64,000 bases of DNA from a virus (IMGVR_UViG_3300020109_000007:47463-111462); one strand, 5' to 3'; shown: positions 25,990 to 26,046, counted from the first letter of the stretch. The notes: a model not told the origin generated them from the sequence alone. Numbers and translations are program-made.

Positions 25990-26046
25990 TGGAGCAGAGG
26001 CCGGACTCCGGAACCGGACTGTACCTTCGTTAACAGGTAACTCTGC
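25990..26046 (-). ncRNA. 57-nt D-armless mini-tRNA-like element
   Basis: Acceptor GCAGAGT/CCTCTGC + CCA, perfect hairpin TACCT-GTTAACG-AGGTA, T-arm-like CCGGTTCCGGAGTCCGG. Confidence 0.35.

Follow-up and report, generated by a model that had tools for sequence, protein, structure and literature searches.

The tRNA array of the window (the whole 64,000-nt stretch of viral DNA analysed) holds a discrete D-armless tRNA-like unit of 57 nt that obeys the grammar of the array, as its anatomy and placement support, and that recurs without a single change in a second phage lineage. No other part of the 10.6-kb region common to these two diverged phages is as well conserved. The element resembles a tRNA in its acceptor stem, its NCCA tail and its position, and none of the detectors used recognises it as one. 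We regard it as tRNA-derived and as a single unit conserved to the letter. For the reading that we prefer, a tRNA-derived, non-decoding small RNA that would be co-transcribed with its neighbours, matured in the manner of a tRNA and kept as a discrete unit, we consider the case about evenly balanced. The element and its surroundings comprise the following features (window coordinates).

26765..26793, minus strand: sigma-70-like promoter, TTGACT-17-TATACT (consensus scan only)
26048..26131, minus strand: tRNA-Gly(UCC), upstream neighbour, irregular, 84 nt (ARAGORN; Rfam tRNA, 33.3 bits)
25990..26046, minus strand: 57-nt mini tRNA-like element; RNA position n is window coordinate 26047-n
26041..26046, minus strand: 5' strand of the acceptor-like stem, GCAGAG, RNA positions 1-6 (fold and direct reading)
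26022..26039, minus strand: hairpin 1, UACCU / 8-nt loop GUUAACGA / AGGUA, RNA positions 8-25 (reading and fold)
26001..26017, minus strand: hairpin 2, CCGG / 9-nt loop UUCCGGAGU / CCGG, RNA positions 30-46 (fold)
25990..25999, minus strand: 3' strand of the acceptor, CUCUGC (RNA positions 48-53), then discriminator U54 and encoded CCA (55-57)
25907..25982, minus strand: tRNA-Met(CAU), downstream neighbour, 7 nt past the CCA of the element (ARAGORN, Rfam)
25344..25907, minus strand: HNH-type homing endonuclease gene, whose ATG shares the A of the tRNA-Met CCA
24841..25326: OMP gene, an anchor for synteny
21430..22926, minus strand (that of the element): DUF2828/DUF7788 Ro60-like gene, 3.1 kb downstream of the element

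Read directly on the minus strand (26046..25990), the element is GCAGAGUUACCUGUUAACGAAGGUACAGUCCGGUUCCGGAGUCCGGCCUCUGCUCCA. Its acceptor, GCAGAG/CUCUGC, forms six Watson-Crick pairs with a mismatch at the seventh position (U7, at 26040, opposite C47), and together with U54 and CCA it reproduces the acceptor-stem-plus-discriminator-plus-CCA arrangement of a canonical tRNA; the acceptor with one terminal mismatch and the encoded CCA described in the first-pass annotation are thereby confirmed. That annotation was also right in seeing no D-arm: hairpin 1 begins 1 nt past the acceptor, and neither D-arm sequence nor a D-replacement loop is present. Its 5-bp stem with a 7-nt loop stands as to the stem (UACCU/AGGUA) and needs correction as to the loop, which has 8 nt (GUUAACGA), an A having been dropped. 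The hairpin that it called T-arm-like does not deserve the name, having a 4-bp CCGG/CCGG stem and a non-canonical 9-nt loop without the U54-A58 geometry of a T-loop. This loop corresponds to canonical UUCGAGU with a CG insertion, and covariance model (CM) alignments gap out the 'CG' against UUCGAGU T-loops.

Structure prediction, which had been suggested as a check, returns the acceptor and both hairpins, with hairpin 2 stacked on the acceptor in a predicted helix of 10–11 layers, but it also offers hairpin 2 an isoenergetic UCCG-GUUC-CGGA tetraloop fold (MFE −17.6 vs centroid −17.5 kcal/mol). Across the three helices, 15/15 pairs are Watson-Crick, despite loops that depart from tRNA norms.

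An Rfam search of 901 nt (E ≤ 10) gave no match to the element, RF00005 included, and scored the four neighbouring tRNAs at 33–68 bits; ARAGORN did not call the element in its standard or mitochondrial (-mt, -mtx) modes, by default or with -ps80. The 7-nt anticodon loop of a tRNA, with U33 and R37, is replaced by 8 nt on a 5-bp stem, the 5-bp T-stem with a 7-nt UUCRANY loop is replaced by 4 bp and 9 nt, and there is no D-arm with G18/G19. The features of D-armless mitochondrial-type tRNAs are likewise missing, as the element has neither a D-replacement loop nor a 7-nt loop and draws no -mt or -mtx call. Two other tRNA readings were rejected: an 81-nt cloverleaf (ARAGORN -ps90), which overlaps the bona fide tRNA-Met and depends on flank that is not conserved in the second lineage (contig L070), and one in which the T-arm is missing and hairpin 2 serves as the anticodon arm (CGG), which would put C at position 33, give a U·U closing pair and leave no TV loop.

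The folding energy of the element has a z-score of −1.13, with 27/200 shuffles folding as well, and this value is uninformative because values of −0.4 to −1.45 are obtained for bona fide tRNAs from this array. In these loci, a stem of 6 bp plus NCCA of the size of the element occurs at ∼4e-4 per nt per strand, an expectation of ∼0.03 per 65-nt spacer before any position requirement.

The 29 ARAGORN tRNAs of the window and its permuted tmRNA all lie on the minus strand, and the array serves all 20 amino acids. CCA is encoded in 27/29 of these tRNAs, and A-U stands at −2/−1 in 15/29, as in the element; U73 is common (7/27 tRNAs). The spacings reported earlier were reproduced, with tRNA-Gly(tcc) (26048..26131) at 1 nt and tRNA-Met (25907..25982) at 7 nt. 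The single nucleotide between the CCA of tRNA-Gly(UCC) and G1 of the element is U, and the bona fide Arg(tct)-Thr(ggt) pair is separated by the same single-nt U ('T') spacer. Because the encoded CCA, the A-U at −2/−1 and the 1-nt spacer fit the array, it is reasonable to infer that the element would be matured by the tRNA-processing machinery.

The upstream tRNA-Gly(UCC) folds in an 8/4 arrangement, with an 8-bp acceptor, a 4-bp T-stem and a long variable region. Downstream, tRNA-Met lies outside the element, since the slot in L070 lacks it, and tRNA-Met and the HNH gene together form an insertion relative to L070 and other relatives. The HNH gene lies 83 nt downstream of the element and is one of six HNH paralogues in the window, spread through the array; other members of the family abut ordinary tRNAs, not copies of the element. 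For the adjacent endonuclease itself there is no close orthologue elsewhere, and its nearest homologues are ≤57% identical and lie in other contexts. The predicted promoter is the nearest one upstream of the tRNA-Pro/Gly/Gly/element/Met series, and a consensus scan predicted no terminator-like site between it (26793..26765) and the OMP gene; the element would lie within this predicted transcription unit.

The second lineage was found in a metagenome scan with the 3' 22-mer of the element, which matched L070 as the sole other contig; the L070-type phage is present in three samples (L070/L080, L081, and L082). The element is identical over 57/57 nt in L070 (6521..6577), L081, L082, and L057. In L070 it directly follows tRNA-Gly(tcc) after the spacer UAU and is succeeded by a small ORF and the OMP gene, and the slot contains neither tRNA-Met nor an HNH gene. 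Between the window and L070, the Ro60-like protein is 72% identical, the OMP, AdoMet_dc, ThyX and a 246-aa protein are 46–72% identical, the tRNAs common to both are 61–90% identical, and BLAST-alignable DNA is 76% identical. The element is contained in a 60-nt exact block that is the longest match between the two (the second longest is 33 nt), and of 3041 57-nt segments compared only one, the element, has 57/57 identities (mean 42.1, SD 4.7). This exact 60-nt conservation is the decisive evidence against chance.

The identity block stops ≤2 nt from the predicted RNA ends. Upstream, the spacer is U in the window and UAU in L070, with U at −1 in both phages, and the 30 nt of tRNA-Gly just before the block differ at 2 positions. 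Downstream, the window has GGUUCCU and tRNA-Met where L070 has GUUUAAC and the small ORF, and the OMP gene that follows is about 70% identical, with no raised identity. Because the block ends near the RNA ends and the flanks differ, the conserved unit is the RNA-sized element, not the neighbourhood. The 10.6 kb common to the window and L070 contains no other sign of recent exchange. With two carrier lineages holding identical copies, there is no covariation and so no independent support for the structure.

Syntenic contigs were retrieved with the Ro60-like protein (21430..22926) and the OMP gene (24841..25326) as anchors. Among them the gene order Val-(Ile)-Gln-Lys-Pro-Gly(tcc)-OMP-Leu...-Ro60 is maintained, and the slot after tRNA-Gly(UCC) turns over rapidly: between Gly(tcc) and OMP it is empty in L052 and L071, holds only a small Cys-rich ORF in L072, unrelated sequence in L054 and L055, a different irregular tRNA in L060, and an unrelated 63-nt mini-element in L076/L077. 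Among 105 distinct contexts downstream of the widespread tRNA-Gly(UCC) 3' end, the element occurs only in the window and L070. In Ro60 identity to the window, L052 (77%) and L054 (75%) are closer than L070 (72%) and both lack the element, so vertical descent requires at least two losses, a pattern that would fit a dispensable or recently moved element.

Among cultured phages (INPHARED, megablast/blastn), the 1.2-kb region gave generic tRNA matches only and no near relative, and the 57-mer alone gave only chance 23-nt matches. IMG/VR returned 0 matches to a 26-mer, 0 to a loop-anchored pattern and three to 17-mers, all three in unrelated coding DNA; a 21-mer scan of bacterial genomes returned 0 matches, and covariance model R1 found no diverged homologue of the element in ∼1.8 Mb of loci. 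One of the three 17-mer matches, L083, was rejected as a homologue, as its match covers 23 nt of hairpin 1 inside an ORF (MPKVVKSFGDLPVNEGTV...) with the acceptor positions unpaired, and is taken for chance (expectation ∼0.05). Within the window, no antisense target of the element is longer than 12 nt.

An ordinary tRNA with a simple deletion in related phages, which the first-pass annotation had named as evidence against a distinct element, was looked for in the relatives, whose slots hold nothing, unrelated sequence or unrelated mini-elements. No full-length parent stands in the syntenic slot among at least 10 related lineages, global alignment to 669 ARAGORN tRNAs yielded no convincing parent, and ∼1.8 Mb of related loci contained neither a full-length parent nor an intermediate. 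CM matches to full-length tRNAs (L065, L067, and L157; 19–23 bits) cover the T-arm and acceptor only, and two of them were fetched by an element-derived pattern. A pattern with a 'repaired' T-arm, GGTTCGAGTCCGGCCTCTGC, leads to initiator-like tRNA-Met genes with an NGCAGAG acceptor in unrelated viral contigs, a match that is circular in being seeded by the element, and the register of these genes does not reproduce the CCA; a kinship of the element to initiator-like tRNA-Met may at this point be called suggestive. An origin as a tandem duplicate of tRNA-Gly(UCC) is not supported, the similarity of the element to tRNA-Gly being no higher than to other tRNAs.

We also searched 855 kb with 645 tRNAs for mini-elements, defined as 45–68 nt with a 6-bp acceptor stem plus NCCA, ≤8 nt from a tRNA. 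Eight were found in sense and one in antisense orientation near tRNAs, unrelated in sequence; this enrichment on the sense strand, and two members that fold far better than shuffles, speak for the small-RNA reading. Mini-elements include the following.

L054, 8638..8700: mini-element, folding z = −3.2
L076, 273..335: mini-element, folding z = −3.0
L070, 6272..6329: mini-element with a true T-arm and without an anticodon arm
L060, 12189..12243: mini-element

The two-hairpin core of the L054 element is ∼90% conserved in lineage L089, where the closing stem differs and CCA is absent; an IMG/VR scan with the L054/L089 core motif gave no match. Because mini-elements recur and the L054 core is conserved in L089, the arrays can be said to harbour small structured RNAs, some with tRNA-like termini, and this fits the irregular non-translating tRNAs and 8/4 phage tRNAs reported earlier (PMC5389517). 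Compared with L072, the 63-nt element of L076 is a clean indel; the direct repeat CCGCTCCA flanks it, and its alignment to its upstream tRNA-Gly beats 2000/2000 shuffles. It looks like a shortened tandem duplicate of that tRNA-Gly, and so truncated tandem tRNA copies do arise here.

As a tRNA-derived small RNA, the element would share a transcript with tRNA-Pro, tRNA-Gly(GCC), the irregular tRNA-Gly(UCC) and tRNA-Met, started at the promoter near 26793-26765. A cut by RNase P would be expected at U(−1)/G1, favoured by the U at −1 itself, by the stacking of the 6/7-bp acceptor on hairpin 2 (4 bp) and by UCCA at the 3' end. Once the next gene had been cleaved at its 5' end, 3' exonuclease trimming back to the encoded CCA would release a 57-nt three-way-junction RNA; its transcription, processing and stability are all inferred. 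Since the element has neither a D-arm nor a canonical T-loop, it would form no tRNA elbow; without an elbow, with an acceptor branch of 10–11 layers instead of 12 and with an 8-nt loop in hairpin 1, it should not decode. It might act through its acceptor end, mimicking tRNA towards a factor with affinity for acceptor stems or tRNA 3' ends, or serving such a factor as another substrate. Such acceptor-end mimicry is the least supported step of the explanation, and any molecular partner is speculative.

G1-C72, C2-G71 and U73 belong to the bacterial tRNA-Gly acceptor identity set. The match of the element to these positions makes it conceivable that it diverts a tRNA-targeting factor, as a decoy or sponge, or that it is a minihelix that can be charged; the Gly-like acceptor is incomplete, with A3-U70 in place of G3-C70 and with C35/C36 absent, and the Gly identity reading appears weakened by both, as well as by how common U73 is in this array. 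A specific decoy or charging role strikes us as decidedly unlikely. On a wider proposal, which we rate as unlikely, the element would be the first example of armless mini tRNA mimics as a class, 55–63 nt long and encoded by phages, each a three-way junction with acceptor stem and NCCA, released from a tRNA array by RNase P and acting via its acceptor end, whether charged (here possibly with glycine) or as a decoy that shields phage and host tRNAs from host defence or toxin enzymes directed at the acceptor stem or CCA end; its absolute conservation would then reflect a specific protein partner.

How the identity came about can be argued both ways from the sequences. Purifying selection would be favoured by the block edges at the RNA ends, the lack of other signs of recent exchange, the tRNA-Gly differences upstream and the 15/15 pairs; recent module exchange would be favoured by the absence of the element from L052 and L054, the rapid turnover of the slot, the many homing endonuclease genes and the rarity of the element. 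The perfect identity in a second lineage speaks against a relic in slow decay and would be compatible with one exchanged recently. A decaying tRNA pseudogene, with its D-arm lost, small indels in both loops and its identity owed to recent recombination in a hyper-plastic part of the array, is the main rival, possible if less than likely; a homing endonuclease may have driven the exchange, the crossover falling in the conserved tRNA-Gly(UCC) 3' end. Such a relic would sit well with the fast-changing slot (L052, L071, L072, L054, L055, and L076), with the L076 element as an instance of truncated tandem tRNA copies arising in these arrays, with an HNH gene 83 nt downstream and six HNH paralogues spread over the array, with the patchy, non-sister distribution of a rare element, and with a hairpin 2 loop that resembles a canonical T-loop plus a 2-nt insertion. 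Against it, neither a full-length parent nor an intermediate turned up in ∼1.8 Mb of related loci, the tract of identity extends over just 60 nt and is bounded by the RNA ends, with 2 differences in the 30 nt of tRNA-Gly upstream and no raised identity downstream (OMP gene, about 70%), the shared 10.6 kb bears no other sign of recent exchange, and 15/15 Watson-Crick pairs would be unexpected after several indels. As L070 has neither the endonuclease nor tRNA-Met, the identity is not accounted for by simple co-conversion with the homing endonuclease gene; the hypothesis of an HNH cassette was rejected on the same observation and on HNH homologues that reach ≤57% and lie in other contexts.

The 60 bp could instead matter as DNA, as the recognition or cleavage site of the HNH enzyme or as a protein-binding or recombination site whose RNA-like fold is incidental. 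Absolute sequence identity rather than structural conservation would then be expected, the tRNA-Met and HNH insertion lies 7 nt from the end of the element, and the DNA includes the palindromes GTTAAC and TCCGGA plus three CCGG motifs. We nevertheless find a DNA site improbable: homing endonucleases exploit pre-existing conservation and do not cause it, an inverted repeat plus NCCA in exact tRNA-spacing register on the tRNA strand is unnecessary for such a site, and the other HNH genes of the window abut ordinary tRNAs, not copies of the element. A small protein-coding ORF, or a chance stem plus CCA in a spacer, is very improbable. An ATG formed by the A-U and G1 opens a frame, MQSYLLTKVQSGSGVRPLLQ..., across the element that is open in both phages, a 248-aa ORF (25344..26090) passes through it, and the folding energy is not exceptional; but the frame has no ribosome-binding site, the upstream sequence being the tRNA-Gly 3' end, its products would differ, since in the window it enters tRNA-Met and then the HNH gene and in L070 it stops after 25 codons, and coding constraint would not keep synonymous sites free of any change where the background identity is 76%. 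The exact conservation of 60 nt rules out pure chance. D-armless tRNAs function in mitochondria, and this lends some plausibility to a working D-armless decoding tRNA, as do the acceptor with UCCA and an 8-nt loop, G-U-[UAAC]-G-A, with U second and a purine seventh, that fits the N32-U33-NNNN-R37-N38 of quadruplet or frameshift-suppressor tRNAs. Even so, we hold decoding to be extremely improbable, as every tRNA model and ARAGORN mode rejects the element, mitochondrial modes included, it has neither a D-replacement loop nor a T-loop, its acceptor branch has 10–11 layers against the 12 required by EF-Tu and bacterial ribosomes (PMC5389517), the array already covers 20/20 amino acids, and there is no sign that the phage needs frameshift decoding.

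Annotation of phage tRNA arrays usually relies on tRNA finders, to which the element is invisible, and the arrays are taken for cassettes of codon supply or anti-defence. As a functional non-decoding mimic, the element would show that phages can pare the tRNA scaffold down to an acceptor-end module, and it would offer a testable connection to tRNA-targeting defence, to the repair of tRNA ends or to non-ribosomal aminoacyl transfer. As a relic, it would record the quick truncation and swapping of tRNA-sized modules in these arrays and would caution against equating identity with function in regions rich in homing endonucleases.

Among known systems, D-armless mitochondrial tRNAs (mammalian mt-tRNA-Ser(AGY) and those of nematodes) resemble the element in consisting of an acceptor and two hairpins, 55–60 nt long, without a D-arm. 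They have a D-replacement loop of several nt, a 7-nt anticodon loop with U33 and dedicated factors, whereas the element has a 1-nt linker and an 8-nt loop and belongs to a bacterial virus. Irregular tRNA-like genes, some unused in translation, occur in polycistrons with tRNAs (Mukai et al. 2017, PMC5389517), and alpha-proteobacterial phages carry 8/4 tRNAs (PMC5389517), which the tRNA-Gly(UCC) upstream of the element resembles in its fold. Allo-tRNAs keep four arms and a 12-bp acceptor branch (PMC5389517); compared with an (8/4) or (9/3) allo-tRNA, the element has 6–7 plus 4 layers and three helices only.

Bacterial Y RNAs of the YrlA type mimic the D arm, T arm and acceptor of tRNA and have a long Ro60-binding stem, with GNCGAAN0-1G near the 5' end; in M. 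smegmatis, YrlA is processed by RNase P and acquires CCA (Chen et al. 2014, PMC4201824). The element is like YrlA in its tRNA mimicry and in its same-strand position <4 kb from a Ro60-type gene (3.1 kb), and the Ro60 orthology of that gene is putative, a PDB sequence search with the DUF2828 Ro60-like protein having given no match. Unlike YrlA, it has no D-arm mimic and no long stem, and hairpin 1 contains only AACGAAGG, with the first G missing. As the GNCGAAN0-1G motif, the long terminal stem and the D-arm mimic are all absent, membership of the Y RNAs was rejected. The stretch just upstream of the Ro60-like gene (22946..23374) contains candidates that resemble YrlA more closely.

Acceptor-T minihelices are substrates of RNase P, the CCA-adding enzyme and some aminoacyl-tRNA synthetases. 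In sequence features the element is like them, with a coaxial acceptor and hairpin 2, a single-stranded NCCA, U at −1, G1-C72, C2-G71 and U73; it differs in the extra hairpin at the junction, the non-canonical T-loop and A3-U70 instead of G3-C70. Stable RNAs C and D of phage T4, about twice the length of the element, lie inside a tRNA cluster. Like mascRNA of eukaryotes and tRNA-Other of B. cereus, these T4 RNAs are small and stable, with tRNA-like ends, RNase P and 3' processing and no decoding role; mascRNA and tRNA-Other are full cloverleaves, unlike the element, which has no similarity to these RNAs in sequence or in Rfam (mascRNA-menRNA matched only the neighbouring tRNA-Met, E = 9.9). 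Because the defining features of each family tested are missing, the element belongs to no named family. By analogy, the predicted RNA would be most like the tRNA-like small RNAs that are released by the tRNA-processing machinery, which are its closest working likeness, and the element is provisionally filed among tRNA-derived small RNA genes.

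Four further small tRNA-like elements were found among the compared contigs:

L076 273..335, also L077: 63-nt mini tRNA-like element, in the slot that the window's 57-nt element occupies, between tRNA-Gly(tcc) and the OMP gene
L054 8638..8700: 63-nt three-way-junction element, between two tRNA-Leu genes
L070 6272..6329: 58-nt mini tRNA-like gene, immediately after tRNA-Pro
L060 12189..12243: 55-nt mini tRNA-like gene, after tRNA-Glu(ttc), with 3' end UCUA

The L076/L077 element (GCGGUAG.../CUGCCGC-U-CCA; folding energy against shuffled sequences, z = -3.0) is unrelated to the window's element. 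The direct repeat CCGCTCCA stands on either side of it, and it is cleanly missing from L072-type contigs, whose encoded OMP protein is identical; it probably arose by truncated tandem duplication of tRNA-Gly(UCC). The L054 element has a 10-bp closing stem and UCCA (z = -3.2), and its two-hairpin core is ∼90% conserved in another lineage, L089 (about 2200..2255), where the counterpart has a different closing stem and no CCA. L072 2541..2600 has only the first hairpin, GGGCACAGACCC, in common with it. The two-hairpin core that L054 and L089 have in common is a conserved ncRNA core. The 58-nt gene of L070, the second lineage with the identical 57 nt, combines a perfect T-arm (UCAGG-UUCAAAU-CCUGA) with a D-like hairpin and lacks an anticodon arm.

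Two partial matches to the window's element were also noted. A 23-nt exact match to its positions 7-29 (UUACCUGUUAACGAAGGUACAGU) lies at L083 9142..9164 (-), within an ORF that encodes a protein, on an unrelated IMG/VR contig, and we judged it to be chance. At L054 8356..8437, where relatives carry tRNA-Leu(gag), the tRNA called by ARAGORN has its 4-base anticodon (aacg) within an 8-nt loop; the loop region has GUUAACG, a 7-mer shared with the loop of the element's hairpin 1, possibly by coincidence.

The window's tRNA region is dotted with HNH-type homing endonuclease genes, six paralogues that all lie on the minus strand. Two of the six start directly at a tRNA 3' end; a T5orf172/GIY-YIG-like gene is listed after them:

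13542..13979, -: HNH-type homing endonuclease
15331..15927, -: HNH-type homing endonuclease
25344..25907, -: HNH-type homing endonuclease, abutting the tRNA-Met 3' end (25907) with its start
27770..28372, -: HNH-type homing endonuclease, abutting the tRNA-Val(tac) 3' end (28373) with its start
32238..32726, -: HNH-type homing endonuclease
33593..34168, -: HNH-type homing endonuclease
23780..24346: T5orf172/GIY-YIG-like gene

Between the predicted sigma-70-like promoter and tRNA-Pro lies a non-coding stretch (window 26346..26495, -; L070 5991..6139) with 76% conservation between the two phages and no match in Rfam. It contains a hairpin whose arms change from one phage to the other while pairing is kept (ACGAGAG...CUUUCGUG vs CUUGG...CCAAGG for the window/L070 pair).

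The middle of the tRNA array holds a Ro60-like gene and, immediately upstream, a region of repeats and tRNA fragments:

21430..22926, -: DUF2828 + DUF7788 protein, 498 aa
22946..23374, -: repeat / tRNA-fragment region

The protein has >6800 homologues at E ≤ 1e-50, and no solved structure matched it at the sequence level; some phage records label it an RNA-binding or Ro-sixty-related protein. The upstream region holds four exact copies of ACAGCAAACC inside 430 nt, and portions of it are conserved in L070. Among these copies, two tRNA fragments missed by ARAGORN score with the Rfam tRNA model, 23304..23360 (36 bits, without acceptor) and 23035..23093 (30 bits). From ∼23035 to 23135 the order is T-arm, 3' acceptor, linker, 5' acceptor, D-arm and anticodon arm, an arrangement of the sequence that looks like a circularly permuted tRNA, and this stretch may be a candidate Y RNA of the bacterial YrlA type. 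The motifs UGCGAAG and UGCGAAAG occur close to it.

Several tRNAs of the array are irregular, and a tmRNA and a beta-barrel gene also lie in the window:

27435..27506, -, and L070 4525..4596: tRNA-Met(CAU), 72 nt
26048..26131, -, and L070 6431..6517, also in L054, L071, L072 and L076: 'tRNA-Gly(tcc)'
27587..27681, -: irregular tRNA, 95 nt, GGAAGGUU...AGCCUUCC-U-CCA
35159..35350, -: permuted (two-piece type) tmRNA, 90.6 bits
24841..25326: Omp25/31-like beta-barrel gene

The tRNA-Met(CAU), 77% identical between the window and L070, has a D-loop of 4 nt, and its anticodon stem is 7-8 bp long. Throughout the clade 'tRNA-Gly(tcc)' is 84-87 nt long; in its fold the acceptor has 8 bp, the T-stem has 4 bp and the variable region is long. 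Its 3' 23-mer is found in >120 IMG/VR contigs; its amino-acid identity is uncertain because this architecture is allo-tRNA-like but the anticodon is that of Gly. The 95-nt tRNA is called by neither ARAGORN nor Rfam, and L060 and L070 have conserved counterparts of it. Its acceptor is 8 bp long and its D-stem, of 6 bp, closes a 4-nt loop; it also has a long variable arm and a CUUGAAA loop with anticodon UGA. The permuted tmRNA, the 8/4 tRNAs and the Omp25/31-like gene together point to an alpha-proteobacterial host for the window's phage, and the 95-nt tRNA is itself of the (8/4) tRNA-Ser type reported from alpha-proteobacterial phages (PMC5389517).
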